NCBI GenBank assembly: GCA_028278025.1 | Contig: JANQFE010000096.1 | Span: 10,711 to 74,710 of the forward strand | Length of the DNA stretch: 64,000 nt | From: Thermodesulfobacteriota bacterium | GTDB taxonomy: Bacteria; Desulfobacterota; WTBG01; CAIYCZ01; CAIRTM01 | Direction of reading: 5' to 3' | Shown here: piece by piece, positions 1-45,777 of the stretch | How positions within the stretch are numbered: position 1 is the first letter of the stretch | Layout of the letters: the number at the start of each line of letters is the position of its first letter | Notes under the pieces: model-generated | Seen by the model: the letters and a program-made list of their open reading frames with translations, nothing else | Database searches by the model: none | What the model was told of the DNA's origin: nothing | Program-made: the position numbers and the translations under genes

Positions 1-2692
1 AGTCAGGAGCAGTAATAATTGCCCACACACGATCAATGGTGCCTGCAGTGGTAACATCTGATACCCAAATTTCCGCATCAGTTTGACCCTCAAGAATTTG
101 TTCAGGGCATATTTCACCAATTGTCGGTATGTCTTCGGCTGTTACAACCCCTAAACCGATATAGAAACCTTTAGCTAAAAAGCCATCGGATTTTTCATTT
201 GCTTTACCATTGCCATCATCATCCAAAACAGCATTTTGAAAGCCATGAAGTGACATTGCATTTTTTGCTGTTACATAAGAATCGTAGACAGTATTTCCTT
301 TGAATATTTCTCCCCAAAAATAATGGGAAAAAGAAATTACGCCATTATCAAGAAAATAGGCTTCCTCATCCGCAGAGGTGCTGCAGACTAAAATACGATC
401 ATTTCCCCTGGATGGCTTAAGGTATGGTGTAAAACTTCCAGATTGGCAAGCGTCATAAACAAAAACAACTTTGCCATTTATTGTGTCCTGAATTTCATCA
501 AGCCAGCGGTTTAGATTTTCTGCTTTTAGTATCTCATCTTCACCCATACGAAATTTACCATCATCACCATGATCTGTAATATAGAGAACTATATCATCAG
601 CATCCTGAGACCACTGTGTTAATGCATATTGCAAATTGGTATTGGTCGCGTCTGCATCAACATCAACAATACCATCAGAATCTATGTCCAGATTCATGTT
701 TGACGAAAGGTAATAAATAGTATCATTTGTAAAACCCTGGCTTATAAGAACCTGCCAGGCATAATTTGTACAAAGCTGTGTTGAATCCCAGAGGGTATTT
801 CCATCATACTGTCCGCCACCGGCAACAATTATAGCCTTTTGGTCCGGCATGTCCGCAGAAGATGATACCGTTACTTGAATGCTTTCTGATTGTGATACAG
901 CGAAATCATCATTGCCGCCAAAAAATGATTGAACTTCCCATGTGCCGGTTTGGTCCGGTATGATTTCCACTTCATAATAGCCATCCTGGTTTGTTATGGT
1001 AATTTCTTTTGTGGTTGTTTCATCGGGTGCAGTATAAATGACCTCAACAAGAGCGTCTTGAATTGGTGTTTCGTTTTGTTTGGTCAGGGTTCCATATGCT
1101 TTAAACCGTTGATTTATGGAAATGGTGTCTGAGGCAGTTTCACAACTGATGAATGAATTTTCTCTCAAACCATATTGAGTAATTGTTACATCCTGAGGAC
1201 TATTGGGAGCAGCCGGAGCAGTGATTCTTATGGTGCCAATTCTGGGTGATTTATTACTATTTTCAGTAAAGGAAAGTGTAATAGTACCGGTGTCAGCACC
1301 GGTTTCACCTGAGACAATAGACATCCATTCTTCGCCGGATATTATGTCCGTATACCAATACATATAACGGACTCCGACATTATCTACACTAAAAGATGTA
1401 GTGCCGGCGGAATCATCTACGTCTCTATTCAAAGGTGTTACTGAAAGTTCTTGTGTTTCATCATCGCAAAGATCACCTGTGCCGTCACCATCGGTGTCGA
1501 GCTGATCTGTGTTGTAGACTTCAGGGCAATTATCATTGCTGTCTGAGAAACCATCACAGTCTGCATCGTTTGAACAACCCCTGGAAGCTGTTTTTTTAGG
1601 GTTATATCTATACATGGGCCATGAACCATTATCCCCATCTGCTGCCTCAATACAATAAACTTTCTTGTCATAACTGCCGAAATATAAATACCCTTCAGAG
1701 AGTGCAGGAGTGGAGACAATGTTATTTCCTGCTGAAAAGTACCATTGTTCTTCACCCGTTACTGCATCAAAACAATAAATTTTATGGTCGATAGCAATAT
1801 AAATGAATTTATCTGTAACGATTGGAGAAGTGTGAATATGAAAATTTTTTTCTCCTATAAATTCCCATATCTTATTTCCGGTCAAGGCATCAAGACGGTA
1901 TAGCAAATCAGTACAACCAAAGAAAACTGAACCATCAGACACAACAGGAGCCGAACACTCGCCTTCCTCTGATTTAAACTCCCATACAACCTTGCCTGTC
2001 TCAGCGCTTAAACAGAATATTTTTCCTAATCTCTGATGACTTGTAAAAACATAGCCATCAGAGATTGCAGGTGCTGAAAGCTTTCCAGAAGATTTATTTT
2101 GGATTTGTTTGAATTCCCATATTGTGTTGCCATTTTTTATATTAAGACTGGAAATAATAGGCAGAGATAACTCGGTATCATAATGAGGTACATAAAAGTT
2201 ACTGCCATCAACAGCAGCAGTATTCTCAGCATCAGGAATGTATGTCTCCCAAATTATTTCACCCGTATTTGCATCCAAACAGAATGCATTATTGTCACTT
2301 GTAGTATAAACATATCCATTAAGAAATGCAGGGGACTGGTCCTTGCCCCAACTGTCCATTTTTGTTTCCCAGATCTGCTCACCAGTGTGAGCATTAAGAC
2401 AACGAAGGCCACTACTTCCCATAAAATAAACAAATCCGTTCACAACTACCGGTGAGGATCGTACCCAGTATGCGTCATGTGTCCAAATGGTTTCTCCGGT
2501 TGCGGCAGCGAGGCAGTACAGTTTACTATCATCACTGCCTATATATACATAGCCTTCATAAACTGCAGGGGAAGACTCGACATAATGGTTGGTTGTAAAT
2601 TCCCAAACTAAATCACCGCCTGCTGCAAAACAGAATGCAGCACTGTGCAATAAAAATATTTTTGCAATCAAGCAACAAATATATTTATTCAT
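1..2692 (-). CDS. Secreted multidomain protein, 5'-partial (continues past window start). From the N-terminus: signal peptide, PQQ-like beta-propeller repeats, Asp-rich Ca-binding (TSP3-like DxDxDG) stretch, carboxypeptidase-regulatory-like domain, peptidase C13 (legumain-like, clan CD) domain.
   Basis: ATG (rc cat) at 2690-2692. Manual minus-strand translation gives MNKYICCLIAKIFLLHSAAFCFAAG followed by repeated 'G..Y.G..D..LY..D..TG...W' propeller blades. Downstream come 'DGDGTGDLCDDETQ', 'YITDHGDDG' and 'VFVYDACQSGSF', which match the His/Cys dyad motifs of legumain (YFTDHG / EACESGS). No complete ORF is listed because it runs off the window. Confidence 0.7.
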   Translation of the reverse strand, partial: MNKYICCLIAKIFLLHSAAFCFAAGGDLVWEFTTNHYVESSPAVYEGYVYIGSDDSKLYCLAAATGETIWTHDAYWVRSSPVVVNGFVYFMGSSGLRCLNAHTGEQIWETKMDSWGKDQSPAFLNGYVYTTSDNNAFCLDANTGEIIWETYIPDAENTAAVDGSNFYVPHYDTELSLPIISSLNIKNGNTIWEFKQIQNKSSGKLSAPAISDGYVFTSHQRLGKIFCLSAETGKVVWEFKSEEGECSAPVVSDGSVFFGCTDLLYRLDALTGNKIWEFIGEKNFHIHTSPIVTDKFIYIAIDHKIYCFDAVTGEEQWYFSAGNNIVSTPALSEGYLYFGSYDKKVYCIEAADGDNGSWPMYRYNPKKTASRGCSNDADCDGFSDSNDNCPEVYNTDQLDTDGDGTGDLCDDETQELSVTPLNRDVDDSAGTTSFSVDNVGVRYMYWYTDIISGEEWMSIVSGETGADTGTITLSFTENSNKSPRIGTIRITAPAAPNSPQDVTITQYGLRENSFISCETASDTISINQRFKAYGTLTKQNETPIQDALVEVIYTAPDETTTKEITITNQDGYYEVEIIPDQTGTWEVQSFFGGNDDFAVSQSESIQVTVSSSADMPDQKAIIVAGGGQYDGNTLWDSTQLCTNYAWQVLISQGFTNDTIYYLSSNMNLDIDSDGIVDVDADATNTNLQYALTQWSQDADDIVLYITDHGDDGKFRMGEDEILKAENLNRWLDEIQDTINGKVVFVYDACQSGSFTPYLKPSRGNDRILVCSTSADEEAYFLDNGVISFSHYFWGEIFKGNTVYDSYVTAKNAMSLHGFQNAVLDDDGNGKANEKSDGFLAKGFYIGLGVVTAEDIPTIGEICPEQILEGQTDAEIWVSDVTTAGTIDRVWAIITAPD

Positions 2693-3006: not shown

Positions 3007-6000
3007 TCAGTCTAGAAGTGCGATGTTCAATTTGTTGAAAAGTGTACCCTCATTTAATTCCTGTTGCAGTTTATTAATAAAACTGCCCAGCGCAGGGCTC
3101 GCCTTTTTGATTACCTCAGTGCACATCTTATTAATTTTTTCTGAATTGTTTTTAGATATATTTACAGCATTACCGTTTATTGCAGACTGTATCTCTGGAA
3201 GAACCTGAAACAGCAATTCAAGTGATTTTACCCGCAGTGAGCGATCATTACTAATAATTGCTGTCAGCTCTTCAAAGTGTGTATAATATAAATTTATAAT
3301 TTCCCTGCCGGCTGCGGTGTTGCCAAGCACAGAGTCACGGAACTCTCTCAAAAGGCTGGTCTCTGCGGCAGTATCCCCCAGCATATACGCAAAGGGGCAT
3401 GCACCCTGGGGGGGTGGGTTTGTCTGGCCACAGCAAGATTCGTCGTACGGGTTGTCAAGACAGAAGGAATCTGGGCTTGGCGTTTTTGCACACAGGCCTT
3501 CATATGGTTCGTCCTGGCAATAGGGGTGGCTGTCAGGGCAGCAGATACCGTTACCACAGTCTATAGAAAAGCCATCAGGGCAGCTGCCGTCGTCATCATC
3601 ATCGTCGTCACCAGCATCGCAGCAGGAATCATCTGATGGATTATCAAGGCAGAACGGGTCGGGGTTCTGTGTTTTTGCACACATACCACCATATGGTCCG
3701 TCGAGGCAGTATGGGTGGCTGTCAGGACAGCAGATACCGTTACCACAGTCTATAGAAAAGCCATCAGGGCAGCTGTCATCATTATCGTCGTCATCACTGC
3801 CGGAATCACACACATTGCTGCCGTCCTGCTCGAAGAACCTGATGTTAGAGCCTGCACCGGTAGGGCAGGTATAGGATTCTGATATTTTTCTGTATACAAC
3901 TCCTCCATTGTGAATATTAACCCTGGATGATGTAGGGCCGTGAGCAGTCAGTATGAATTCACCTTTATAGCCGTAAGGGCCTGATCGGTCGTTTAGCAGG
4001 TTTGCCAGGGCCCAGTTTTTAAGCAGGTCTTCCCAGGTGTCTACATTAGGCAGGCGTTTTGATGCAACTGCTTCAACTGCCTGATAGTCACCAACACCAT
4101 GTTCAACCATGTAATCTAGGATTTCTTTAAAAATCTTATCATTAATGGAAGAATGAATGGCAAGATACTGACCAAAGATGTATGCCAAGGCGTAGTTTGC
4201 AAGCCTATCTTCATCGTTATTCGAGTCCCACCACGTAAGACCATGTCCGTTACGTATAGTCTTATTTTTATCATCATTGTAATAAGTGATCCTGGTAAGG
4301 TAACCATCATTAAGCATCTCTGGATTAGTGAAGGAGGGATCATCTTCTAGTTTTGCCTTTAAATACATGGTTTCTGACGCCATTGACATCATTTCAGTTA
4401 TCCATATGTCTGAAGAAAATCCATCTCTACCCAGGTTCCATCCGGTTTCGCAAAAATTGACCATATGCTGATACTCATGTATGAAAGTTGTCAAAATGTA
4501 TTTATGGTAGTAATTATTCGCATAATTACCGTTAACATAGAGCAAGTCCATCTCATTTGATTTTCTGTCTATACCTTCAGCATCAAGTATTTCCTGAGCA
4601 TAATAATCGTACGGAGCAAAAAATCCTCCGAGACCATTGTTTCCTAAATTACATAAAAGGATCGATACTTTTCCATTATGGTCTCTGTCGGTATATTCAC
4701 CGATCTTAGACCGCACTAATTCGTACATAACATCAAACTCTGTAATATATAATTCAAGTATATCATCAGGAATTGAAAGCGTTGTTTCGACAAATATATA
4801 ACCGTACCTGCCTTCTTTTTTTAGCGTTGCCGCAACCCTGTCACCCAAAACCCAGAAGTCTTTTTTGTCATCGAGGTTAAAAGTTTGAGAGGCTATTTTT
4901 ACAGTACGGCTTTTTTGTTCAAGGAGTTTACGCGTTTTATAAATCAACGATGCATCACATTTTGGCATGGGAACATCCTGCAGATAAAAACTGCGATTAG
5001 AATCTCTTGTTTTGAAGGATGGTGCAGCCTGGGAGAAATTTGATCCTGGAAGAGAACCGGAGGGTTCGGTTTGTTCATCATCTTCAGCTTTTATATTAAT
5101 TGCTACAAGGTAGTCAGAATCATTTTCTTCTATTGGAAAGACCGCAATAGTTGCAGAAGCAGTATCCGTTCCACCTGATCCCTTAACAGTTAATGTTGCC
5201 TGATATGTACCAGGCTCATCATAGGTATGTGAGATGTTTTTGCCAGAACCGGTTTTACCATTACCGAAGGTCCAGGCCCAAGAATAAATATCTCCTTTTG
5301 ATTGATCTGTAAATTGTACATTCAATGGGGCTTTGCCGCTTTTTGGGCTCGCGGTAAAAGCAGCTTCGGGTGCTTTGGATGTAACTGTAAGCCTGGCCGA
5401 GGAACTTGTTCTGCTTCCTTCTACATTGCTGACAACACAGCGAAAAAGGTCCCCGTTATCATCACTTGAAACTGGTGGTGTTGTATGTTTTGATTTGGTC
5501 GCACCGGAAATATCTGTATAATTTTTTTGCCACTGGTACTGCAAATCATCACCTTCAGCCTTAACTGAAAAGCGGGCAGTGTCACCTTCCTCAACAGTCT
5601 GGGATTCAGGGTGAGATGTGATTTGCGGAGGCTCAATGGTTTCTTCAATTACACTTAATTCCGCCCAATCACTTTCAACGCTGCCGGCACTATTGCTGAC
5701 GATACAACTGTATTCAGATCCATCATCGGCAAATGTGACCGGAGGAGTAGTATAGGAAGAAAAGGTTGCGTCGGGAATATGATAACCATCCTTTAACCAC
5801 TGGTACTGGAGGTCATCACCGTCGGCTTCAACTGAAAAGACTGCAATCTCCCCAATATATACTTCCTGGTCATCAGGTTGGTTTGTTATTTCAGGAGGTG
5901 CTGCAACAGAAGAGGGTTCAATGGGAAAATCTATTTTACTGTATTCCGGATAGTCACCATCGAGCATGACTGACCGCAGTTCATCCTGGTTGCAAGCAGA

Positions 6001-6423
6001 AGAAATATGCAAGCCGATACTGTCAGAGGAACTGATAGGTTCATTGACAGTTATGTAATAATTAACAATGTAGTAATAGCCATCTCCAGCAAGATCAACT
6101 TCTTGTGAGCCAATAGCAGTATCATTTTTTTTCAGTACAATATTAAACAGTGCTCCAGAAGTGTTATCCTCATTGAGTGCTTTTAATAACATTGTGCCTG
6201 ATATGTTTGAGTCTTCCAGTACAACTCCACCGGTAAGAAAACCTGAAAAGCTGATATCAAGTGAAGGTTGCCCAAGGTATTCTTCAGGTTCAGAACCATC
6301 ATAGGGTTGTGAAGTTAGCAGTCCGCCGCTGTTCAAATAGAGCCTCTCAATGGACTCGCTATATGCAAAGCTGCTTCCAAGGAGTATGGTTATTATGAGA
6401 ATTAAAGTTGTTAGGTGTTTCAT
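3007..6423 (-). CDS. Secreted multidomain metallopeptidase, M30 (hyicolysin)-like HEXXH family. Contains 2 Ig-like (I-set-like) domains, a PKD domain, two tandem Cys-rich repeats with poly-Asp stretches, and a conserved helical C-terminal domain (CTD-A).
   Basis: The ORF track gives 3007..6465 beginning at a TTG. The probable real start is ATG 6423 (MKHLTTLILIITILLGSSFAYS signal peptide) preceded by AGGAGA. Motif 'TTFIHEYQHMVNF...WITEMMSMASE' is paralogous to the 43544..45754 protein. PKD: 'ASPKSGKAPLNVQFTDQSKGDIYSWAWTFGNG'. C-terminus 'LLREFRDSVL...GREIINLYY'. Confidence 0.8.
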   Translation of the reverse strand: MKHLTTLILIITILLGSSFAYSESIERLYLNSGGLLTSQPYDGSEPEEYLGQPSLDISFSGFLTGGVVLEDSNISGTMLLKALNEDNTSGALFNIVLKKNDTAIGSQEVDLAGDGYYYIVNYYITVNEPISSSDSIGLHISSACNQDELRSVMLDGDYPEYSKIDFPIEPSSVAAPPEITNQPDDQEVYIGEIAVFSVEADGDDLQYQWLKDGYHIPDATFSSYTTPPVTFADDGSEYSCIVSNSAGSVESDWAELSVIEETIEPPQITSHPESQTVEEGDTARFSVKAEGDDLQYQWQKNYTDISGATKSKHTTPPVSSDDNGDLFRCVVSNVEGSRTSSSARLTVTSKAPEAAFTASPKSGKAPLNVQFTDQSKGDIYSWAWTFGNGKTGSGKNISHTYDEPGTYQATLTVKGSGGTDTASATIAVFPIEENDSDYLVAINIKAEDDEQTEPSGSLPGSNFSQAAPSFKTRDSNRSFYLQDVPMPKCDASLIYKTRKLLEQKSRTVKIASQTFNLDDKKDFWVLGDRVAATLKKEGRYGYIFVETTLSIPDDILELYITEFDVMYELVRSKIGEYTDRDHNGKVSILLCNLGNNGLGGFFAPYDYYAQEILDAEGIDRKSNEMDLLYVNGNYANNYYHKYILTTFIHEYQHMVNFCETGWNLGRDGFSSDIWITEMMSMASETMYLKAKLEDDPSFTNPEMLNDGYLTRITYYNDDKNKTIRNGHGLTWWDSNNDEDRLANYALAYIFGQYLAIHSSINDKIFKEILDYMVEHGVGDYQAVEAVASKRLPNVDTWEDLLKNWALANLLNDRSGPYGYKGEFILTAHGPTSSRVNIHNGGVVYRKISESYTCPTGAGSNIRFFEQDGSNVCDSGSDDDDNDDSCPDGFSIDCGNGICCPDSHPYCLDGPYGGMCAKTQNPDPFCLDNPSDDSCCDAGDDDDDDDGSCPDGFSIDCGNGICCPDSHPYCQDEPYEGLCAKTPSPDSFCLDNPYDESCCGQTNPPPQGACPFAYMLGDTAAETSLLREFRDSVLGNTAAGREIINLYYTHFEELTAIISNDRSLRVKSLELLFQVLPEIQSAINGNAVNISKNNSEKINKMCTEVIKKASPALGSFINKLQQELNEGTLFNKLNIALLD

Positions 6424-6618: not shown

Positions 6619-7230
6619 TTAATTAAAAAAGATTTTTCCTAATGAAATTTTTTCTTGTGAGAAATTGAAAATATTGTACTCATCAACGGGAGATACATTA
6701 TTACTGAAATTGTTGATATCAAAAATATCTGAGCCACATGTATTGGTGCAATGACTTTCAAGGACTGGATCCCCTGAGTTTGTAAGTGTCAATAAAAGGG
6801 TTATATCTTCATCGCAATCATTAATAGGTATACAGCCCTCAAAATTAGCTATAAAGTCGCCGTCAATATAAAGTTTTATACTGCAAATATCATCAGAAAT
6901 TTCTCTGCAGTCTGAATATTCTCCTGATTCTGCAGCCCATGTTCCTTCAGATGTTTTCAGGGTTGCTTCCAGAGATCTACCATTGCTGTAGGAAAGATTA
7001 TTAAAAAAGTTTAGATTTTTCTCAGAACCTCCCGGCCCTTGTTGACCTTTTGCTGCCCCTTCGATAACAACACAATTGCGGTCTGAAGCATACGCCTGAG
7101 CTGCAAAAGGGTAACATGGTGAAAATATCAGACTTAAAATCAGTAGAAGGCTCATATACATAGTGTATGATATAACCATTTTATTATACTTGAAGATAAG
7201 CACTGTTAGTTTTAGAAAGTTTGCATTCAT
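6619..7230 (-). CDS. Small secreted Cys-rich protein (paralog of 7432..7980), function unknown
   Basis: ATG at 7230 with AGGAGA 6 nt upstream. Hydrophobic signal-like segment. Shares 'NFFNN(L/I)(S/A)YSxGxS(L/M)xA(T/K)L(K/E)TS(E/A)GTW(A/T)A(E/D)SGEYSxC' and a conserved Cys framework with the next gene. Confidence 0.6.
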   Translation of the reverse strand: MNANFLKLTVLIFKYNKMVISYTMYMSLLLILSLIFSPCYPFAAQAYASDRNCVVIEGAAKGQQGPGGSEKNLNFFNNLSYSNGRSLEATLKTSEGTWAAESGEYSDCREISDDICSIKLYIDGDFIANFEGCIPINDCDEDITLLLTLTNSGDPVLESHCTNTCGSDIFDINNFSNNVSPVDEYNIFNFSQEKISLGKIFFN

Positions 7231-7431: not shown

Positions 7432-7980
7432 TCAAAAAACAAGAGGTAGAAGAGGCTCCAGATCATCATTTTCACCTTCATCATTTAAATTACTAAAAAG
7501 ATCAATTTCAACTTCTATATTAATTATTGAAGCTGTATCAACTATATCAGCAAATCCTTCAAATGATTGTACATTCAAGATATCATTACCGCAATCATCA
7601 TGGCAGATCAACTTGAGAACAAAAGTGGAAGACCCCTCTAAAGTGAGCAGTAGTGTAGCATCAGTGCAATCTTCAATGTCAAGGCAATCATTAAAAGCAA
7701 ATTTATAATCACCATCAAAATAAACTCTAATGTCACATATTGAATTGTTTGAAACGGATTTGCAGCTCGAGTATTCGCCCGAATCTGCCGTCCAAGTGCC
7801 TGCAGAAGTTTCCAGTTTTGCAGACATGCTGTTTCCGCTGGAGTAGGCAATGTTATTAAAAAAATTAACACTATGAGGTGAACTGTTGCCACCCCCGCCT
7901 CCATCATCACCATCACAGCCAATCAAGGAGATTGATGCAATAATTGTTACAATATAAACAATACACTTAATTTTCTTCAT
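7432..7980 (-). CDS. Small Cys-rich lipoprotein (paralog of 6619..7230), function unknown
   Basis: ATG at 7980 with an AAAGGA SD. Lipobox 'SLIGC'. A Gly run follows, then the same conserved Cys pattern as the upstream paralog. Confidence 0.65.
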   Translation of the reverse strand: MKKIKCIVYIVTIIASISLIGCDGDDGGGGGNSSPHSVNFFNNIAYSSGNSMSAKLETSAGTWTADSGEYSSCKSVSNNSICDIRVYFDGDYKFAFNDCLDIEDCTDATLLLTLEGSSTFVLKLICHDDCGNDILNVQSFEGFADIVDTASIINIEVEIDLFSNLNDEGENDDLEPLLPLVF

Positions 7981-8279: not shown

Positions 8280-9005
8280 TTATTTTACAGCTATAATCTG
8301 CGGTTGCATTTCATACTGCGAATCAAGGCGTGCAATGCTGGTGGCCTGTATCTGGGCCACACGTTCAAGCAGCTTACTGCTTACAAAGGACCTGTATGAA
8401 TACTCAACCTTATCGGAAAACTCAGTGGTTATACCGGGATCATGATTTTGTGAATAGACCGCGCCGGCGCCCAGTGCACAAAGCCCCCACCCCGGGGCAA
8501 ACCAGCCCAGCAGAGAGGTTGCCGCACCTCTGCTGAAACTGGTGTATCTGATTTCATATGGAGTAACAATATTAAACTGATTGATTAATCTGCCGGTTTT
8601 AGGGTCAAGCACACGCACATCAGTATCAACTTCTATATAATACTTATACCCGAGCCAGGCATGCGAAAAGACCAGAAAGCCGGGAAATGCGATAGGAATA
8701 TTTTGAAGGGATGATTTATACTTAACTGTTTTATTAAGATCGCATATATAATCAAGGTCCATCCCGGCAGATGTATGACAATCCTTTTTTACGGCCTCAA
8801 CTGAAGAAGAAAGGCTTGTCTCGCTAATAATGGACCTGAGCAGGCGGTCCTGGGTCGGTGCAAATCCAAGTTTAACTGTTTCTCTTTGATAGGCATTTAC
8901 GGGTGTAAAAACATCTCTGTTGGTAACTTTAAGCGGGTGAGTGCACCCCATTGCTGCAAAAATGCTGGTGGCCAGTAAGCATATAATTTTTGTTGCTGTT
9001 TTCAT
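8280..9005 (-). CDS. Lipoprotein of unknown function
   Basis: ATG at 9005 with an AAGGAG SD. Signal 'LLATSIFAAMGC' (lipobox). Confidence 0.6.
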   Translation of the reverse strand: MKTATKIICLLATSIFAAMGCTHPLKVTNRDVFTPVNAYQRETVKLGFAPTQDRLLRSIISETSLSSSVEAVKKDCHTSAGMDLDYICDLNKTVKYKSSLQNIPIAFPGFLVFSHAWLGYKYYIEVDTDVRVLDPKTGRLINQFNIVTPYEIRYTSFSRGAATSLLGWFAPGWGLCALGAGAVYSQNHDPGITTEFSDKVEYSYRSFVSSKLLERVAQIQATSIARLDSQYEMQPQIIAVK

Positions 9006-9276: not shown

Positions 9277-12108
9277 CTAATATGTCATAATGTCAGCAGA
9301 TTCAAAGATATTCTTAATGGTTTTTTTCTTTAGGTATGGTTTTACAAGTGAAAGATTATGTTTCAAAGTTGGAGGAGAGCTTTTTTGCAAGTCTATAAAA
9401 GCCTGCATCAAGCTGTTAACAAGTTCTTGGGGAAGTGCAACAGATTTATTCTTAAGGGCAGTATCTGTGATTAGAGCAGCAGAAGAAATTAATTCTAAAC
9501 AGCGCTGACTAAGTTTGGGATCTTTTTTTATAATATTCCAAACACCACAGGCTAAATCATAGTAGAGATCAACCAGCTGCCTTCCCGCTGGTGATTTTAC
9601 TAATATTTCATCACGAAACATCCTGAGTAGAATCAAATGATTATTCTGAGAAGTTTTTTCTACTAAATATTTAACAGGGCAGGTGCTGTTGTCCGGAGAT
9701 GTTCCGTTGTCATCATCATCATTTTCACCGACAACAGGCTTCATAATAATATCCTTATATACAACAGAACCGGGTGTGACCACTACAAGCGGAGTTGTTT
9801 CCTGGGTATAATATTTATGGTCTGATGACAGCATATGTTCACCGGCAGAGGCCAGGACTTCATAATAACCATCATGGTCACTGGTGTACTCGGGGCTGCC
9901 CTTGCAGGTAACGGTGGCATTATCGAGCAGATCTCCGGAGTCTGTTTTAACATATCCGTGAATTAAACCTATCAAACCTGATGAGGCCTCAAATAGCCCA
10001 GATGATGTACCTGCAAAGATAGGAGATAACGATAAAGGGGCACTTTTTTTAAGATGCAGGACTCGCGCAGATGTGCTGCCGGAAGCTGCTGAAGTATTTG
10101 CGTTTATGGTATGCAGGCTGTGCCCTGTAAGGCCTGCCTTGTTCCAGTACTCCCCGCCGTTGAGGCTCATATACACACCGCCAAAACTTACAAGGTCTTT
10201 ACGGTAGGCCATTGATAAACCTTGATAAACTATGTTGCTGTCTGATTTGTCGACACTAATGTCGGCTATGGTAAATTTCTCGGGCAATCCTTCAGATTTG
10301 TTTAACCAAGACGAACCACTGTCAGTGCTTTTGTAGATTCCGTTGCTGCGGCAGGCAGCATAAATTATATCAGGAGAAGAAGGTGCAAGTGCCAGCGCAT
10401 TTACGACTTCTTCATGTAAAGCTGTCTGCGACCACGTATCACCGCCATCAGTGCTTGCATACAGACCACCTGGCTTAACAGGAGAATAAACGTTCCCGGC
10501 ACCTGCAAAAATAATAGTTGAATCCTGTTGATTTACGGCAAGAACATTAATATCACAATCTGCCTGAAGCACTGTTTCAATTGTGCTTTTAGAGAAATTT
10601 TTTTGAGGGTCATCATCTATTCTTACAATCTGTCCTTTCGTGCCTGAAGAAAAACCAACCGCAGCTAAAACAATATCATTACCGGTTTCTTTCTCAATAA
10701 CGGCAATTGAATTTATGGAATTTGTATTAATAAGGTCCGGTAAATAGCGATACTGCCAGGTTGTGCCGCTGTCAGTGCTTTTTCCAAGTTTCCAAGCAAA
10801 ACCGGCATAGATAATATTTTTATCTTGAGGGTGAAAGCGAACAGCTTTACTAGAGTTTTTTTCAATGTGCTTCCATTCAGTATCAGTTTTAAGAAAAACA
10901 CCCGCAACAGTGCTCGCTACGATAGTTGAGGAATTATCAGGAGCAAAATCAGTTGAAAAAATTGCATTTGCCTTAATCCCGCTGTTTATAGTTTCCCAGG
11001 TTTCAGCGCCGTCGTTTGATTTAAAGATGCCGTTATGAATGCCGCCGGCATATATAGTATCTGGATTAAAGGGGTCTGATGCCAGCTTATAGAAATCATC
11101 AGGGGTTTCAAAAAAGTCCCAGGTAGCACCTTTATCAACGCTTTTAGCAATTGTTTTACCGGCAAGTCCAGCGAAGACGGTATCAGGTTCGGAGTTTGGA
11201 ATGCATAAAGTGTATGTAGGCTCGGCTAGCGATGTCCAGTACCAAGAACCGCTTTTAAGCGGACCGTCAACCTTGCGGGCTACACCTTTTGATCCACATG
11301 TAAAAAGAACAGATGGGTCAGAAGGATGAACTGCAATTGAGCCAAGCCAGCCAAACGAGCCAGAACCTTCATCTCCATAGGCTTCTGACCAGCTATGCCA
11401 TGTTGTACCGTTATCAGGGGAAACATACACAATGCCGTTTGTTTCAAACACACCCCATGATGAAGAAATTCCCCACAATTCACCAGGTTGTTGAGGGTTG
11501 ATGCCCAGGTCAATAATCGCATAAGGTGCCTCAAGGGACATTTCTTTGAAAAGAATAGACCCCTCAGTGCTTCGATAGAAATAACCGTAGCCATTATCAC
11601 TTGTTGGCCCGGTTCCAATATATATTGTATTACCCGTAGAATCGTGTGGATCAACTTCAACATTATGGCAAAAAAGCTTTGAAAATACTCCGTTAATGAA
11701 TCCGATATTCCATGTTTCACCATAATCGTAGCTGACATCAGTAAACATATTGGATGACACCCATATGGTTGACGGGTTGTTCGGATCAATATCAATGTCA
11801 AAAACTTCACGGTTGCGAAACCAGGTGTTGTTGTCGGTGGGGATTGTAATCCATGTCTGACCGCTGTCAGTGGTTCTGAACAGGCCGTCACCGTTCCAGC
11901 TGCCGGCATACAGTATCGAGCTGTCATCGGGATCAATAGCAAGGGATAGAATCTGACCGCCATACAGCCCCAAGTCTTCCCAATAAGAGTTTTCCTGTTG
12001 AGCATGTGCAGGGCAAAAAGTGCAAAATAGGATTAAAGGCACACAAAATGCAACATATGTGCAAAGTATTATAGAGTTGAGGGTGTTGAATATTTGATAT
12101 AATTTCAT
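9277..12108 (-). CDS. Secreted BNR/Asp-box repeat protein (sortilin/Ycf48-like beta-propeller repeats), followed by a carboxypeptidase-regulatory-like domain and the conserved C-terminal domain (CTD-B)
   Basis: The ORF track's 9277..12348 overlaps the upstream gene. The real start is ATG 12108 (MKLYQIF...CPAHAQQ signal). Eight or more S/TxDxGxTW motifs (TTDSGQTW, SYDYGETW, SPDNGTTW, VDKGATW, SNDGAETW, STDSGTTW, STDGGDTW, STDSGSSW). C-terminus 'LRMFRDEILVKSPAGRQLVDLYY'. Confidence 0.8.
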   Translation of the reverse strand: MKLYQIFNTLNSIILCTYVAFCVPLILFCTFCPAHAQQENSYWEDLGLYGGQILSLAIDPDDSSILYAGSWNGDGLFRTTDSGQTWITIPTDNNTWFRNREVFDIDIDPNNPSTIWVSSNMFTDVSYDYGETWNIGFINGVFSKLFCHNVEVDPHDSTGNTIYIGTGPTSDNGYGYFYRSTEGSILFKEMSLEAPYAIIDLGINPQQPGELWGISSSWGVFETNGIVYVSPDNGTTWHSWSEAYGDEGSGSFGWLGSIAVHPSDPSVLFTCGSKGVARKVDGPLKSGSWYWTSLAEPTYTLCIPNSEPDTVFAGLAGKTIAKSVDKGATWDFFETPDDFYKLASDPFNPDTIYAGGIHNGIFKSNDGAETWETINSGIKANAIFSTDFAPDNSSTIVASTVAGVFLKTDTEWKHIEKNSSKAVRFHPQDKNIIYAGFAWKLGKSTDSGTTWQYRYLPDLINTNSINSIAVIEKETGNDIVLAAVGFSSGTKGQIVRIDDDPQKNFSKSTIETVLQADCDINVLAVNQQDSTIIFAGAGNVYSPVKPGGLYASTDGGDTWSQTALHEEVVNALALAPSSPDIIYAACRSNGIYKSTDSGSSWLNKSEGLPEKFTIADISVDKSDSNIVYQGLSMAYRKDLVSFGGVYMSLNGGEYWNKAGLTGHSLHTINANTSAASGSTSARVLHLKKSAPLSLSPIFAGTSSGLFEASSGLIGLIHGYVKTDSGDLLDNATVTCKGSPEYTSDHDGYYEVLASAGEHMLSSDHKYYTQETTPLVVVTPGSVVYKDIIMKPVVGENDDDDNGTSPDNSTCPVKYLVEKTSQNNHLILLRMFRDEILVKSPAGRQLVDLYYDLACGVWNIIKKDPKLSQRCLELISSAALITDTALKNKSVALPQELVNSLMQAFIDLQKSSPPTLKHNLSLVKPYLKKKTIKNIFESADIMTY

Positions 12109-12142: not shown

Positions 12143-13495
12143 TTAAAAATGAATAATAACTGATGCCATAAACAGATGCTGGGTAACATCCGCATCAGTT
12201 GAAGGTATATCCAGAACCTCTCCCTCAACATCCTCTCCCCGGCGAAACTGGTAGGCAAAATCAAAAACAAGCCTTCCAGCTGAAAAACCTGTGCCCAGAG
12301 AAAATCCCCAGAAATCTTCAGGGCTTTTATTAGACGGCTCAGGATCATAAAAAAGTCCGCAACGCAACGGAATGATGGTTTTTACAAATATAAGGAGATA
12401 TTCTGCACCCAGTCTAATCTGGTGGGTTGCATTAACATGACTATCTTGTGAAGACTCACCGGTGATAGGACTTTTACGTTTGCCTTTACCGTTTTCAAGC
12501 ACAAAATGAGACCATTCAGTTCTGTGTACATCGAGTGAAAGAGTAAGTGTATCAGAAAAACGTAATGCAATCCCAAACCCATACGATAGGGGTATTTCAA
12601 GATCAACATCCTCGTCTATACGTGTTACCGAAGTGCTGGCAAAGCCTGTGGGCGGCTTCATTGTGATTTTTCCCACACGTTCATGCTGCAATTCACCGGT
12701 AAAGGGGGTCTTAATAACGCCGCCGATTGTTATATACCTGTTGATGTCCCATAAAAAACCAATATGCATGTTAAAACCGGAAAAGCCGTAATACCTGTCG
12801 CGGTCTTTAGATTTAAACTTTGTCGGTGCTCGTCCCGGACGAGATATTGCACCTGTAATAATAGTATCCGACTCCCAACCGTTACTCCAAAAAAGATTGT
12901 CAGTCCAAATATTGCATGTAAATCCAAAAGAAATATCGGGGGTAATTTGAATGGCATAAGCAGGAGATAGCGCACTCAGTTTGCCACGCTGGCGGAAATC
13001 CATATGCTGCTCGAAACGAACGGCAGGATTGTTAGACCGGGTAATAAAATCTGTTTCAATATTGCGATCAAATTCATAAAGGCGCTGGTAGTTAAGCGAA
13101 ACAATCATGTTGCGCTGAAACAGTTTGAAAGGATAAGCAATGCTCAAGTAATTAAGGTCTTTGCTGAGACTTCGCTGCAGTCCAGCCGCTTCAGGGTGAC
13201 TTTTTGAACTGTAATCCTCACGACGTCTGAAATAAGAAAACGCAAAAGAAATCTCGGGCTTACGCAGTTGAGTCAGACCGGCAGGATTCCATGAGGCTGC
13301 GGTGGCATCATCTGCAACAGCAATAAAGGCGCCCCCCATACCAACAGCGCGGGCACCTGAGCCAACAGGGTTGGGTGATGATGCTATAGTAATTTTTTGA
13401 GGTGCAGTTTGTGCCGAAACTGCAGTACACAATACGCCACCTGTAAGGCATAAAAAAATGAAATAAAAAAAACAGCGTAGAAGAAACAGTCTCAT
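12143..13495 (-). CDS. FadL/TodX/OMPP1-family outer-membrane beta-barrel (hydrophobic-substrate transporter family, which also contains T9SS PorV)
   Basis: Signal peptide. 'GMGGAFIAVADDATAASWNPAGL', the family-typical NPAGL N-terminal motif. C-terminal aromatic (..HF). The ATG overlaps the stop of the upstream gene (ATGA coupling). Confidence 0.8.
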   Translation of the reverse strand: MRLFLLRCFFYFIFLCLTGGVLCTAVSAQTAPQKITIASSPNPVGSGARAVGMGGAFIAVADDATAASWNPAGLTQLRKPEISFAFSYFRRREDYSSKSHPEAAGLQRSLSKDLNYLSIAYPFKLFQRNMIVSLNYQRLYEFDRNIETDFITRSNNPAVRFEQHMDFRQRGKLSALSPAYAIQITPDISFGFTCNIWTDNLFWSNGWESDTIITGAISRPGRAPTKFKSKDRDRYYGFSGFNMHIGFLWDINRYITIGGVIKTPFTGELQHERVGKITMKPPTGFASTSVTRIDEDVDLEIPLSYGFGIALRFSDTLTLSLDVHRTEWSHFVLENGKGKRKSPITGESSQDSHVNATHQIRLGAEYLLIFVKTIIPLRCGLFYDPEPSNKSPEDFWGFSLGTGFSAGRLVFDFAYQFRRGEDVEGEVLDIPSTDADVTQHLFMASVIIHF

Positions 13496-15618: not shown

Positions 15619-15660
15619 TGCTTTTGTCTCAACCTTTAAAGCATCATGTAATAAACAAAA

Positions 15661-17778: not shown

Positions 17779-17835
17779 TATATACTGTTTCTTAATAAAG
17801 TTGTCTGATTAGTTTATGCAGCTAATGCAGAGATG

Positions 17836-18705
17836 CTATTGAATCAGAAATTGAACTCTTTTGATTTCCCTGCGGTTTCTGGATAATACTATATGATAAG
17901 TTCCAGGAGATATATCCTTAAACAGCGCCTTACCATCTTCTAGGAAGAGCGACACTATTTCGAGGGTATCATGAAACAAAGAAACTCTGATATTATCAAG
18001 AGAAGAGCGTAGGCCTGATGTTGAGAGAAAAACCAACACTTCAAATTTTTGTTTCTCAAGTTCTTCTATTTCAATTTTCAGCTCAATTCCCCCGGACCTG
18101 TCCATGATAATGGATATGTTTTCCTGGAGTTTTCTTTTACCCTTTCGAACCATTATAAGCTGCGGTTCAGATTGAGGAATAAAAAGTTCGGCAACAAAAT
18201 CCCTGCATTTTTGGAGAATGGATTTAGTAAGGTGTATCATTTGTGTGCTTAATGAAGTGTCAGTGCTTTTGCTAAGAGGATATTCCCGTGAGACTGCTTT
18301 AAGAAAACTATGCAGCCCATCTACTGGTTCCTTATGAAAAGTCATTTTTTGCATATCCTGCTCAAGATCAAGAAGCTGTGAGAAATATCTGTTACAGTCA
18401 GTACAACTATTAAGGTGTTGTTTAATTTCTTTTAGGCCCTTATCAGATAGCATTTCTCTCTGGTTAGCATACGCGACAAGAAGATCAGGGTCAATACAAC
18501 TGGAATCTGCATATTTTTCTGCAAGAACTGTCCTGTGTGTTGATAATGCGGCATCAATTTCACGCAGTTTTATAATCTCATGTCTGCATGCGGAGCACCC
18601 ATCAATATGTGCTGCAAGCGTTTTCATATCATTGCCGTTTAACTGCTTTTCAAGATAAAGCAGTAATTTGTCATTGAGCTCAGGTTTATCACATTGTGCT
18701 TTCAC
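17836..18705 (-). CDS. Anti-sigma factor, zinc-finger (ZAS, HxxxCxxC) type
   Basis: GTG start at 18705 overlaps the sigma stop (GTGA). 'HIDGCSACRHE'. Second Cys pair 'CTDC'. Position is immediately downstream of the ECF sigma gene. Confidence 0.65.
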   Translation of the reverse strand: MKAQCDKPELNDKLLLYLEKQLNGNDMKTLAAHIDGCSACRHEIIKLREIDAALSTHRTVLAEKYADSSCIDPDLLVAYANQREMLSDKGLKEIKQHLNSCTDCNRYFSQLLDLEQDMQKMTFHKEPVDGLHSFLKAVSREYPLSKSTDTSLSTQMIHLTKSILQKCRDFVAELFIPQSEPQLIMVRKGKRKLQENISIIMDRSGGIELKIEIEELEKQKFEVLVFLSTSGLRSSLDNIRVSLFHDTLEIVSLFLEDGKALFKDISPGTYHIVLSRNRREIKRVQFLIQ

Positions 18706-31766: not shown

Positions 31767-33245
31767 TTATCTTGAATCTGCTGTCAGCTTTTCTATTACA
31801 GGCAGTACTGTTTCCAGTATGGTCTTTGCAATAGAGGTAACTGCCGGGTATGTATCCATTAAATCGACAATTGCAGCTGACTGGGCATAATAGAGTTTTA
31901 TAAGAGCTTTGCCGGTCTTGTTTTGTGCAAGGACTCTGTCTCGGAATTGCCGCAGCGTTTCAAGACAGGGATCCGCCTCACCAAGCAGCTCGATGGCCGG
32001 ACATGGGAGAAGAGGCGCTACCGTTACCTGCTGCGATGCAGTGTTCGTGAGCGCTTCAGGGTCCTTAACTTGCAGTATAATGGTATATGTACCGGGCTCT
32101 GCATAGGTAGTGGTTGCCGTTTTAGTTGGGCTGTATTGAGTATCCCAGGTACCGTCATTTTCCCAGTCCCAGCGCACTTCAAGAGAATCCGAGCTATCCT
32201 CTGCATCAGTGGAGGCCGAGGCATCAACGCTGAATTCAGTACGGGTGTTACCTGATATAGGATCAACAGAAAATAAAGCGGTTGGGGCAGTATTGGTAGG
32301 CACGGAAGTTGTTGTAGTTGTTGTTTCCGAGACCGGGGAGAAGTAACGCAGTATGATACCATCATTGCCAACGGCATAGGCTTCATTTGAAGGGCTTACC
32401 CAAAGGCCCTGGAGAAGTTTTGAAACACCGCTTTCCATCTTCATCCAGGTGTTTGACCGATAGTTATAAATAATACCGTCTTCACCCGCAGTAAAGATAT
32501 TAGGAGCGGTGGTGCCTTCAATATCCCAAAAATCTTTTTTGGTACCGGCACTCTGCTTAGTCCATGTTTCACCGTTATAGATAAGTAGTGTGCCGTTTTT
32601 GCCGACAGCAAAAACATTTGTTGCAGACGTACCCCAAATGCTGTAAAGATCATCCTCGACAAAACTTTCCTGTACGGTCCAATCACTGCCGTCAAAGTGC
32701 AGAATAACGCCCTTTTCACCAACGGTAAAGATATCATCGGCAGCGCTGCCCCAAATGTCCAAAAGAGTGTCGCTTACAGGACTCAGCATGCTTGAGCAGG
32801 AGGATTCATTACACTGCTTGATTATACCCTTTTCCCCGACAAAAAACATTTCAGAGAAAGAAGTGCCCCATATCCCGTAAAGGTTAACTGAAGTGTCACT
32901 GGGCACCGGCTGCCAGGCAGATTCATTTTTTTTCAAGATGGTGCCGTCATTGCCAGCAATAAATATGCTGTCATTAGCAGGACCCCAAATTCGATTGAGC
33001 GTATTGGCAGTACCACTGTCTAATTCTTTCCAGGTTGTGCCGTTGTCAAAAAGAAGCGTACCGGCAAAGCCTACCGCATAGATGCTGGTATCTGAGGTCC
33101 CCCATACATCTTTCAGTACCTCCTTTGTCGGACTTTTCATACCTGTCCACTCCTGGGCGTAAAGGCCACCGGCAGTAAAGAGTAAAATAAATGTGATCAT
33201 TAAAAAAAAAAGTGATTTTTTCATACGGTACCTCCAATTTTGCAT
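31767..33245 (-). CDS. Secreted 7-bladed beta-propeller protein with PKD domain and the conserved C-terminal domain (CTD-C)
   Basis: Signal peptide. Seven repeats of 'IWG(T/S)S...(F/Y)AVG..G.IL....(S/E)W'. PKD 'FSVDASASTDAEDSSDSLEVRWDWENDGTWD'. C-terminus 'CPAIELLGEADPCLETLRQFRDRVLAQNKTGKALIKLYY'. Confidence 0.75.
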   Translation of the reverse strand: MQNWRYRMKKSLFFLMITFILLFTAGGLYAQEWTGMKSPTKEVLKDVWGTSDTSIYAVGFAGTLLFDNGTTWKELDSGTANTLNRIWGPANDSIFIAGNDGTILKKNESAWQPVPSDTSVNLYGIWGTSFSEMFFVGEKGIIKQCNESSCSSMLSPVSDTLLDIWGSAADDIFTVGEKGVILHFDGSDWTVQESFVEDDLYSIWGTSATNVFAVGKNGTLLIYNGETWTKQSAGTKKDFWDIEGTTAPNIFTAGEDGIIYNYRSNTWMKMESGVSKLLQGLWVSPSNEAYAVGNDGIILRYFSPVSETTTTTTSVPTNTAPTALFSVDPISGNTRTEFSVDASASTDAEDSSDSLEVRWDWENDGTWDTQYSPTKTATTTYAEPGTYTIILQVKDPEALTNTASQQVTVAPLLPCPAIELLGEADPCLETLRQFRDRVLAQNKTGKALIKLYYAQSAAIVDLMDTYPAVTSIAKTILETVLPVIEKLTADSR

Positions 33246-41097: not shown

Positions 41098-41202
41098 AAC
41101 AGTACTCCATAAAAAAACAGCAATTATTTACTTAATATAATACTTTGTTTTATATTGGATAAAAATATGCTAAAAACATATAATGCTATAATTATGAATT
41201 TT

Positions 41203-42543: not shown

Positions 42544-42574
42544 ATAACCCCCCTTCTACAGTGAATATTAATAA

Positions 42575-43492: not shown

Positions 43493-43543
43493 TCCTCCAA
43501 CAAAAATTGTACTATTAATGATTTTACATTACAATAATATACT

Positions 43544-45754
43544 CTATTCAATAGTTAAATCGTTTAACAGGGTACCCGTAAGCAAATCGTTTTGTAATGT
43601 TTCAATAGCATAAGTCAAATCAGGCCCGGCATGCTGCTTTAGTGCTTCACACAATTTATTTATACGGGATATCTCAAAAGAAGTGAGTTTTAGATGATTC
43701 TTTTTAACGGCATAGTCCAGTGCGGGCAGCAGGTCAACCAGAGTTTTACCTGCCAGGGCTCTCACCTTGGGCTTGTTTGTTACAATTGAAACAACTTCTG
43801 CAGTATGCAGATAATACAAATCAATTAATTCTCTGCCATAACCTGTCTTGCGAAGCACTGTATCCCTGAAATTTCTTATTAATGCAGTTTTTGCAGATTT
43901 GTGGCCGAGTAACCGGGCAATACCGCAAGCACCGCCGCTGACTGTTGTGGTTGTGTCTCCGCCACCACCACTAGGAACAGTGGTGGTGCCCGGTGTAACG
44001 CTGGCACTGGTTTCATGAAATCTAATGCTGGGGCCAGCATCAGCAGGAGCGCTCCAGGCACCATCGACTTTGCGGTATACTGCACCGCTGTTATGAATGT
44101 TGACACTGTCGGCAGTCGGTCCCTGGGCACTGACGGTAAAATTACTGTTGTAGCCGTAACGTCCCGAAGCTTCATTTGCAAGATTGGCAAAATAAAAGCT
44201 CTTTAACAAGTCTTCCCATGACCCAATACCAGAGATTCTTTGAGACGCTGCCCCAACAACACCCTGATAGTCATGCACACCATTAGCAATCATATAGTCA
44301 AGGATTGCTTTAAATATATCCTGACCCGTTGACGATTGAATTGCAAGGTACTGACCAAACAGATATGAAAGGGTATAATTTGCAAAAACATCACCCTGGT
44401 TATCCCAGAATGAAAGGCCATGGCCGTTTTTAATGCTGTCACGGGGGTCAATGTTGTAGTATTCGATTCTATCTGCAAGATAGCCCTGGCCCTGCATGCT
44501 GGGGTGCGAATATGCAGTATCATTTTGGAGCTTATATTTGAAATACATGGTTTCAGAAGCCATAGCCATCATTTCATCTATCCAGACATCTGAAAAATCA
44601 CCGCTGTTGCCCTGGGTCCAGACTTTAATGCAGAAGTGAACCAGGTGCTGATATTCATGAACAAGCGTTGTAAGATTGTAATTATAGAAATCATAATCTG
44701 TCTCAGTTGACCACCCTTGCGGCTCGTTGCCCCTGATGTAAATAATATCCATTTCATTGCTGCGGATTCCCTGTACACTGGTCGTGGAATCATTAAGGTA
44801 ATCCTTGCTCCAGAAATAGCCGCCCATATAACCGGTAGCAACACTGCCGTCGTCATTCATGGCATACAGCAGTACGGCAACCTTGTTATCTCCGTTTCTG
44901 TCGGTAAAAACACCGATATTGTCTCTAACAACTGTGTACATAGTTTCAAACTCGGTTGCATACTCTTCAAGGTTTTCATTTGAGATAGAAATAGTATTAT
45001 CTACAAAAATGTTTGCATGCGTACCTGACTTCTGTACGGTGGCCGACACCTGACGCCAGGCAGAATCATTATTATCCTTAACCCAGAAAAAGCCGGTATC
45101 GCCGACATCATAAACCGTAACATCCTCAGAGTGTAACGTCTCAGCTCTTTTTTTAAGAACTTCTTTTGTCTGCCTGATCGACGATAAATCAGGGCGAGGG
45201 AAGGGCTGATCATGCCAACGGATTAGCGGCTTGCCGTCCTGCCTGTACAACATGGGTGTGCTTTCAAAAAAGCTTGTACCAGGAAGGGTGCCCGACGATT
45301 CGGGAGAATCATTTTCACCATTGCCGTTAATATTAATTGCCGCAATATACTGACCAGCCGAGGAGGAGCCGCCGGGAATAGTTGTGGTTGTATCACTGCC
45401 GGGGACAGTAGTTGTCGTACCGCCTTCAGGTATTGTAGTTGTTGACGGAGAAGAATCTTTTAAGCATTGCTGATCTGCATTATAATAATCACCACATGAT
45501 GTACCTGCAGGACAGCACCAGTAATTAAAAACATCGTCAAAACAGCATACCGTAAAATCCTGGTGGCAGCAGAAATAATCAAAGCCGTCAAAACATTCAA
45601 TTGTGTATTCCGGAAATCCACTGGGTGGACAATTTTGACCATACGAAATACCCTGCGGCAGCAGCAAAGGGTGGAAAAACAAAAGCAAAGGTAATTGGAA
45701 ATAGATTCTCAGTTTCATTCGATATGCTCCATGATAGATATTTAAAATATTCAT
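43544..45754 (-). CDS. Secreted M30 (hyicolysin)-like metallopeptidase with Thr-rich linkers and the conserved C-terminal domain (CTD-D); paralog of 3007..6423
   Basis: 'TTLVHEYQHLVHFC...WIDEMMAMASETMYFKYKL'. C-terminus 'ALIRNFRDTVLRKTGYGRELIDLYY'. The true start is possibly M13 (MKLRIYF..., 45718). Confidence 0.8.
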   Translation of the reverse strand: MNILNIYHGAYRMKLRIYFQLPLLLFFHPLLLPQGISYGQNCPPSGFPEYTIECFDGFDYFCCHQDFTVCCFDDVFNYWCCPAGTSCGDYYNADQQCLKDSSPSTTTIPEGGTTTTVPGSDTTTTIPGGSSSAGQYIAAININGNGENDSPESSGTLPGTSFFESTPMLYRQDGKPLIRWHDQPFPRPDLSSIRQTKEVLKKRAETLHSEDVTVYDVGDTGFFWVKDNNDSAWRQVSATVQKSGTHANIFVDNTISISNENLEEYATEFETMYTVVRDNIGVFTDRNGDNKVAVLLYAMNDDGSVATGYMGGYFWSKDYLNDSTTSVQGIRSNEMDIIYIRGNEPQGWSTETDYDFYNYNLTTLVHEYQHLVHFCIKVWTQGNSGDFSDVWIDEMMAMASETMYFKYKLQNDTAYSHPSMQGQGYLADRIEYYNIDPRDSIKNGHGLSFWDNQGDVFANYTLSYLFGQYLAIQSSTGQDIFKAILDYMIANGVHDYQGVVGAASQRISGIGSWEDLLKSFYFANLANEASGRYGYNSNFTVSAQGPTADSVNIHNSGAVYRKVDGAWSAPADAGPSIRFHETSASVTPGTTTVPSGGGGDTTTTVSGGACGIARLLGHKSAKTALIRNFRDTVLRKTGYGRELIDLYYLHTAEVVSIVTNKPKVRALAGKTLVDLLPALDYAVKKNHLKLTSFEISRINKLCEALKQHAGPDLTYAIETLQNDLLTGTLLNDLTIE

Positions 45755-45777
45755 GATTGTTTTACGGTCATGAGTGG

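Follow-up and report, generated by a model that had tools for sequence, protein, structure and literature searches.

C-Terminal Domains of Four Exported Proteins

The window analyzed here is the whole 64,000-nucleotide stretch of contig JANQFE010000096.1 from a Thermodesulfobacteriota bacterium, and our subject is the C-terminal domain (CTD) encoded by four of its genes, referred to below as A, B, C, and D. Judged from sequence, all four belong to the CFI-box-CTERM family (NCBIfam NF041770) as divergent members, without the transmembrane (TM) helix found in canonical ones. The domain occurs in a short form, consisting of the core only, and in a long form, in which a two-helix extension is added to the core. 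Translations and alignment bore out the preliminary description of this DNA in its basic claim that four open reading frames (ORFs) on the minus strand end in the same domain. The CTD limits given here run from the invariant Cys through the last codon, and the domain coordinates reported earlier differ from them by 0 to 9 nucleotides. The genes and their CTDs are as follows.

3007..6423, minus strand: gene A, 1138 amino acids (translation, Pfam scan); in order, Sec-type signal peptide, immunoglobulin (Ig)/PKD domains, HExxH metalloprotease (weakly M30-like), two Cys-rich repeats, long-form CFI-box CTD.
3010..3399, minus strand: CTD of A, 130 amino acids from Cys1009; core about 3172-3399, two-helix extension about 3010-3171.
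9277..12108, minus strand: gene B, 943 amino acids (translation, Pfam and NCBIfam scans); signal peptide, BNR/sortilin-Vps10-type propeller, CarboxypepD_reg domain, Asp-rich linker, long-form CFI-box CTD.
9280..9681, minus strand: CTD of B, 134 amino acids from Cys810; core about 9448-9681, extension about 9280-9447.
31767..33245, minus strand: gene C, up to 492 amino acids (translation, Pfam scan); signal peptide, beta-propeller repeats, PKD domain, short-form CFI-box CTD.
31770..32003, minus strand: CTD of C, 78 amino acids from Cys415; short form, core only.
43544..45718, minus strand: gene D, 724 amino acids from the called start, with the ORF reaching 45754 (translation); signal peptide, Cys-rich module, Thr-rich linker, HExxH metalloprotease (paralogue of that in A), Thr/Gly linker, long-form CFI-box CTD.
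43547..43927, minus strand: CTD of D, 127 amino acids from Cys610 (736-amino-acid numbering); core about 43700-43927, extension about 43547-43699.

In the translations, all four CTDs extend to the stop codon, and each begins at the invariant Cys after a flexible linker rich in Thr, Gly, Asp, or Pro. The N-termini of A, B, C, and D appeared Sec signal peptide-like on inspection. The products of genes A and B are identical to proteins P0011 and P0014 of the protein collection that we searched, and the 724-amino-acid product of gene D is its protein P0283; at 90% identity each window protein forms a cluster of its own.

Pairwise BLASTP among the four CTDs gave E = 1e-7 to 7e-32, and by this measure their likeness far exceeds chance. 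The residues C, R, F-R-D, L, G, and L-Y-Y are identical in all four copies of the alignment, with the Cys lying 17-19 residues ahead of the invariant Arg in [LI]RxFRD. The core motif proposed earlier needs correction for D, which has IRNFRD and not LRNFRD. A profile of the four CTDs was searched against the six-frame translation of the window and found no fifth copy, the next matches having E of about 1 or worse.

The cargo of these domains differs from what was first supposed. The four proteins had been described as different in catalytic type, but A and D represent one cargo family, and no catalytic domain was recognized in B or C by Pfam and NCBIfam scans. Since A and D share their cargo family while B and C differ, the window holds three cargo types, not four. 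The HExxH motif of both A and D reads HEYQH, and their metalloprotease regions are 46% identical over about 450 amino acids. Both had been called M30-like. They are indeed related HExxH proteases, but the Pfam M30 family (PF10460) matched A only, at 16.2 bits (E = 0.004) versus a gathering score of 25.8, and did not match D. On these scores the term denotes a distant resemblance only. Separately, two Cys-rich repeats of about 52 amino acids (SCPDGFSIDCGNGICCPDSHPYC...FCLDNP..SCC) stand in tandem in A just before its CTD (about 3400-3760, minus strand), and D has a Cys-rich module near its N-terminus (45500-45650, minus strand) that by eye resembles them.

Assignment to the CFI-box-CTERM Family

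NF041770 is a model of 69 positions with a curated cut-off of 40 bits. It matched the CTDs of A, B, C, and D with 31.0, 36.6, 49.8, and 32.6 bits (E = 1.6e-7, 2.9e-9, 2.3e-13, and 5.3e-8), respectively, which places C above the cut-off and A, B, and D, although their matches are significant, below it. The domain had been considered apparently undescribed. This view has to be given up, as NF041770 matches all four CTDs and NCBI already names canonical relatives CFI-box-CTERM. Among long-form relatives, L037 and L038 scored 43.1 and 51.6 bits, above the cut-off, and L039 scored 21.6 bits; the metagenomic relatives retrieved first were all above it. As a reciprocal test, a hidden Markov model built from window-type domains matched 120 of 120 canonical CFIATAAYG proteins with 20-54 bits.

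The protein collection was probed for the canonical form with a query sequence modeled on the box, GGGGCFIATAAYGS..., and this probe returned 331 real proteins that were up to 87% identical to it. Several of them are named by NCBI 'CFI-box-CTERM domain-containing protein [Dehalococcoidia bacterium]'. Against NF041770 the canonical matches reached about 100 bits, covering positions 1-69 and placing the Cys at position 1; in the canonical protein P0163, for example, C19 aligned to position 1. The canonical box reads CFIATAAYG[TS] in 69 of the 83 canonical matches in which a box was found.

Conservation was then compared between the TM-less (n = 210) and canonical (n = 120) classes. L-R, F-R-D, L, G, and Y-Y are conserved at 0.89 or more in both, and the residues common to the two classes are all present in the four window copies, with D having I for L before R. 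The box itself is a different matter. CFIATAAYG is absent from the window copies, whose corresponding boxes are CPFAYMLGD, CPVKYLVEK, CPAIELLGE, and CGIARLLGH (CP[FVA]... or CGI...). Of the eponymous box the window copies retain only the Cys, and their matches to NF041770 begin at model positions 11-13.

Based on these results, all four window genes can be annotated as encoding CFI-box-CTERM family proteins. The protein encoded by C is an ordinary TM-less family member. A, B, and D fall below the cut-off, lack the F-I of the box, and carry an extension outside the model, and we therefore file them as a long-tail variant, a recognizable subclass that the current NCBIfam model under-scores. A pipeline applying the NF041770 cut-off would probably leave three of the four copies unnamed.

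Other resources had little on the domain. Pfam held no family for it when whole proteins, isolated CTDs (to E = 10), a family consensus, and a canonical member were scanned. A search of the PDB returned no sequence or fold relative, and the profile gave chance matches to designed helical bundles, the best with E = 0.018. Literature searches found no paper on the CFI-box domain or NF041770 and no experimental characterization, and the Dehalococcoides S-layer protein DET1407, followed as a literature lead, yielded nothing relevant to the domain.

Anatomy and Predicted Fold

In canonical members the cargo is followed by a linker, the CFIATAAYG box, the helical domain, a short linker, a TM helix, and a basic cluster, as in the example tail ...NTTPAEKMVIVGLLALVSVALAIWVKRQRGRGPECR. 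A TM-like helix follows the domain in 101 of the 103 canonical matches with enough downstream sequence, and 95 of the 103 have the basic cluster. Both elements lie outside the 69-position model, and the Cys stands about 90 residues ahead of the TM helix. The window CTDs do not share this architecture and have no TM segment, their highest 19-residue Kyte-Doolittle hydropathy averages being 0.66-1.18. A TM-like stretch in the last 60 amino acids was likewise found in none of 149 window-type relatives.

AlphaFold2 modeled the short form (C) as a compact four-helix module with a predicted local distance difference test score (pLDDT) of 94.6 and a predicted template modeling score (pTM) of 0.78. 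The long form (D) gave the same module plus two helices (model residues 88-102 and 107-122; pLDDT 88.3, pTM 0.79). The module is predicted to comprise a short box helix, an LRxFRDxxL helix, and a long helical hairpin starting from GxxLIxLYY. The residues common to the TM-less and canonical classes lie mainly in its first half.

The tail after the core had been described as variable. Instead, the extension of about 55 amino acids is conserved in A, B, and D and in other genomes: it could be aligned in these three, two L022 proteins from a Thermodesulfobacteriota metagenome-assembled genome (MAG), L033, P0001, P0157-P0161, and both copies in P0013. Both forms can occur in one genome: the window has C beside A, B, and D, and L022 has L022a beside L022b and L022c. 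The window CTDs are near-neutral or basic, with net charges of -2 to +7, and the family has a median of -8 and a consensus of -17.

Family Size, Distribution, and Cargo

When 1.84 billion representative proteins were searched exhaustively with a profile, 17,158 matched at E ≤ 0.001 and 1,536 at E ≤ 1e-10, the former number counting clusters at 50% identity. This size and the distribution described below show that the similarity is neither chance nor paralogy within a single genome; the latter, which the preliminary description had named as an outcome that would undo its claim, is ruled out.

The counts for position, Cys, linker, signal peptide, and cargo come from the best 156 relatives. The domain ends within 5 amino acids of the C-terminus in 151 of these 156. 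The Cys is invariant (76/76 aligned carriers) and is the sole Cys of the domain in 108 of 152. The 25 residues ahead of it contain 22% Thr and 12% Ser. A crude signal-peptide test was passed by 47 of the 73 longer carriers (Met start, 230 amino acids or more). In 76 carriers, 35 different Pfam families occur, and the cargo includes beta-helix and TSP3 proteins, C1, S8, and neprosin peptidases, lectins, propellers, CHAP, and rhodanese. A further group of carriers consists of small multihaem c-type cytochromes that have 3-14 CXXCH motifs (L017, L020, L024, L025, L028, and L032; P0100, P0082, P0115, and P0142). For L017, L025, and L032, synteny of the locus is conserved between three MAGs.

A pattern scan that was kept narrow on purpose and covered one genome per species yielded 34 loci. 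Most belong to MAGs of Thermodesulfobacteriota or 'delta proteobacterium', a single MAG having as many as ten. The other loci are from Methanomassiliicoccales, Thorarchaeota, Nitrospiraceae, Polyangiales, and Aminicenantes, and the family also occurs in Dehalococcoidia. All-against-all ORF clustering of the 34 loci and the window revealed no recurring neighbor family, only generic families and the one three-MAG syntenic locus; two further CFI-box contexts held housekeeping genes and again no recurring family. Structure, distribution, and neighborhoods had been proposed as checks, and they returned, respectively, a compact all-alpha prediction, a spread over bacteria and archaea, and no recurring family.

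Several small carriers, P0002 and P0004 among them, are Cys-rich. Other relatives have unusual architectures. P0008 and P0009 consist of a signal peptide and two complete CFI-box domains, with nothing else. The helix-3 (LYY) unit occurs two or three times over in P0010, P0021, P0023, and P0055. In P0013, an internal copy of the long form precedes a second cargo, after which comes another copy. In P0012, CFI-box copies are followed by an Asp-rich repeat pair that is dockerin-like by eye, an architecture suggesting that the CFI-box and the dockerin-like pair are two distinct modules.

Exchange of C-Terminal Modules in the A/D Protease Family

The long form is present on each of the three metagenomic proteins closest to the A/D protease (48-55% identity). 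More distant relatives end differently. L052:6203-6802 has a type A CTD of the type IX secretion system (T9SS), with 23.5 bits to TIGR04183 versus a cut-off of 23 and 39 bits to FlgD_ig. L041 ends in four Big_6 Ig-like repeats; it is the one protein scanned of L041-L049, and L042-L049, which are close to it, have near-identical C-terminal sequence. Since a long CFI-box domain, Big_6 repeats, or a T9SS CTD stands at the equivalent position, the C-terminal module of this protease family differs between lineages.

Genomic Context

The following features accompany the four genes in the window.

2-2692, minus strand: large exported protein extending past the window start; by eye, signal peptide, PQQ/BamB-like propeller repeats, TSP3-like Asp-rich stretch, and caspase/legumain-like HG...C region.
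6619-7230, 7432-7980, and 8280-9005, minus strand: three lipoprotein-like ORFs without a Pfam family, between B and A.
12143-19460, minus strand: co-directional run directly upstream of gene B; in order, ECF sigma factor, zf-HC2 anti-sigma factor, CHAT protease-like and CsgG-like protein, TPR, Glucodextranase_B and CsgG-like protein, FadL/TodX-type outer-membrane protein.
34804-36798, plus strand: TMEM260-like protein O-mannosyltransferase, about 1.5 kb from gene C.
39667-47256, minus strand: five secreted peptidase genes, namely S41 with PKD, M43, M43, the HExxH protein D, and M6-like.

The FadL-type outer-membrane and CsgG-like genes in the window suggest that its source is a two-membrane (diderm) bacterium. 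The run upstream of B may be a regulated envelope or export unit. The first two lipoprotein-like ORFs are paralogues with NFFNN..YS.G.S..A.L.TS.GTW.A.SGEYS.C in common. In the peptidase cluster, the CFI-box CTD is found on D only. The C-terminus of the protein at 2-2692 lies beyond the window, and this protein may therefore be a fifth CFI-box carrier. The O-mannosyltransferase gene near C, together with the Thr/Ser-rich linkers found throughout the family, makes glycosylation of the linkers conceivable. Rfam, tRNA, and tandem-repeat scans of the window showed nothing relevant.

Proposed Role of the Domain

We infer that the CTD is a retained docking or retention module for which other CFI-box domains, including TM-anchored ones, would be the most economical partner, and we put the probability of this reading at roughly 50%. 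The carriers would be exported by Sec, and the module would stay on the mature protein as a noncatalytic docking or retention domain. There it would keep enzymes and binding proteins of various kinds attached to the cell envelope or to one another. Contact might be made through a putative patch formed by the conserved Cys, R..RD, and YY, with the probable partners being other CFI-box domains, membrane-anchored ones included.

Several observations argue for this reading. Canonical members put the same domain directly outside a membrane anchor. The polar and aromatic residues conserved across both classes (C, R, R-D, and Y-Y) exceed what a helical core needs. The AlphaFold2 confidence and the absence of a TM segment from the window CTDs and their relatives point to a folded module rather than a linear signal. 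The terminal position, the Thr/Ser-rich linker, the signal peptides, the 35 cargo families, and the many copies per MAG are consistent with an anchor-like placement. The A/D protease family swaps the long CFI-box domain with Big_6 repeats and the T9SS type A CTD. Additionally, the internal copies in P0012 and P0013 and the two-domain proteins P0008 and P0009 are hard to square with a signal that is cut off, and look adaptor-like. The targeting or anchoring role suggested in the preliminary description is plausible, and the architecture, the range of cargo, and the swapping of anchors in relatives are all consistent with it.

Two results weigh against a retained docking module. The neighborhoods of the 34 loci and the two further contexts identified no partner, receptor, or processing enzyme. 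The window CTDs also differ in charge from the family (-2 to +7 versus a median of -8), from which it follows that the window copies may bind something different.

The domain could instead be a cleavable sorting signal, as 'CTERM' in the family name would suggest, at or near whose Cys a dedicated enzyme would cut and link the cargo through the Cys to a lipid or envelope polymer, in the manner of sortase, exosortase, or archaeosortase. The invariant Cys lies exactly at the boundary of linker and domain, as such a scheme would have it, and the TM helix and basic cluster of canonical members are the usual back end of sortase-type signals. The terminal position in 151 of 156 relatives, the many copies per MAG on unrelated cargo, and the T9SS CTD of a distant cargo relative also fit. 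However, the window type has no TM helix that could keep the substrate at a membrane enzyme, and even in canonical members the Cys is about 90 residues before the TM helix and does not adjoin it. A stable fold is predicted, internal and tandem copies occur, and no candidate enzyme recurs in the neighborhoods examined. A cleaved signal seems less likely than a retained module, and we regard it as unlikely. Hint/intein-like autoprocessing at the G-C-F junction was also considered and rejected, given the all-alpha predicted fold and the absence of the Phe from the window copies.

Rather less probable is a module that serves only the oligomerization or stabilization of secreted or periplasmic proteins, possibly with disulfide-linked Cys residues, and entails no envelope retention. 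Such a function would suit the predicted helical hairpin or bundle, the single unpaired Cys typical of the domain, and the proteins that consist of two CFI-box domains only or repeat the helix-3 unit. It would leave unexplained why the canonical domain sits immediately outside a membrane anchor and why a Thr-rich stalk precedes the terminal module, an arrangement typical of surface tethering. Most carriers, moreover, come from anaerobes, in which extracellular disulfides are generally disfavored.

A bolder proposal, which we likewise hold to be rather improbable, would make the CFI-box the substrate-side handle of an undiscovered attachment system in anaerobic bacteria and archaea. Its boundary Cys would be covalently modified or cross-linked, and the long-tail subclass would have its own partner. 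If this were true, the Cys would carry a lipid, be joined to an envelope component by a thioether or disulfide, or be connected to CFI-box proteins anchored in the membrane.

Binding of a small ligand such as a metal ion, mineral surface, lipid head group, or glycan through the Cys, Arg, Asp, and Tyr residues, which would bring the cargo to a substrate or surface, is still more doubtful. The two classes share mostly polar or aromatic residues (C, R, R-D, and Y-Y), not core hydrophobics alone, the typical member is strongly acidic (median -8, consensus -17), and multihaem cytochromes are among the cargoes; but the charge is not conserved, with the window copies at -2 to +7, and no similarity to known binding folds was found. 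That the domain is previously undescribed and possibly lineage-specific is hardly credible: there is no Pfam-A model, no paper was found, and three copies score under the NF041770 cut-off, but NF041770 matches all four at E ≤ 2e-7, canonical relatives already bear an NCBI name, and the 17,158 clusters extend across bacteria and archaea.

Herein, the domain emerges as a tag on very many exported proteins, among them proteases, lectin-like and propeller proteins, and multihaem cytochromes, mostly from uncultured anaerobes in both bacteria and archaea. For this very large cross-domain family, Pfam has no entry, and neither a solved structure nor a paper was found. Whether the domain anchors, docks, or is cleaved bears on where the tagged enzymes act, be it the periplasm, the cell surface, or the medium, and its role might reveal a sorting or assembly system.

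Comparison with Known C-Terminal Systems

The preliminary description set the domain apart from the T9SS CTD, PEP-CTERM, LPXTG, GlyGly-type, and dockerin tags, and the absence of a TM segment, the all-alpha predicted fold, and the absence of a Pfam match agree with this. The signals of sortases, exosortases, archaeosortases, and rhombosortases (LPXTG, PEP-CTERM, PGF-CTERM, and GlyGly-CTERM) are likewise C-terminal on many unrelated Sec-exported proteins and often follow Thr/Ser-rich stalks, as CFI-box domains do. These signals are short tripartite units of a motif, a TM helix, and a basic cluster, whereas the window CTDs are predicted folded helical domains of 78-134 amino acids without a TM segment. 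The NCBIfam scan of the window proteins matched no LPXTG, PEP-CTERM, GlyGly-CTERM, or PGF-CTERM model.

The T9SS type A CTD (TIGR04183) is likewise a folded C-terminal domain, of about 80-100 amino acids, on diverse secreted cargo. It has a beta-sandwich fold, whereas the window CTDs are predicted to be all-alpha. TIGR04183 did not match the window proteins in the NCBIfam scan, for which the C-terminus of L052 (23.5 bits) served as a positive control. The CFI-box family, moreover, also occurs in archaea and non-Bacteroidota lineages, and to our knowledge T9SS is not expected in archaea or in the CFI-box lineages outside Bacteroidota.

Dockerin and S-layer homology (SLH) modules are alike in concept only, each being a small terminal module after a linker that docks varied exo-enzymes to a shared partner or polymer. 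Pfam matched neither module in the window CTDs, and its scans of whole proteins and isolated CTDs, to E = 10, returned no dockerin. An Asp-rich repeat pair like that of P0012 was not seen in the window CTDs, and we know of no cohesin-like partner for the CFI-box domain.

The canonical CFI-box domain, as found in Dehalococcoidia/Chloroflexi, differs from the window copies in detail. The window copies are 2 residues shorter from the Cys to LR and mostly lack the conserved S-P after YY, and A, B, and D carry the two-helix extension of about 55 amino acids outside the NF041770 model. In canonical and window proteins alike, the same helical domain is placed C-terminally after a low-complexity linker on varied exported cargo.

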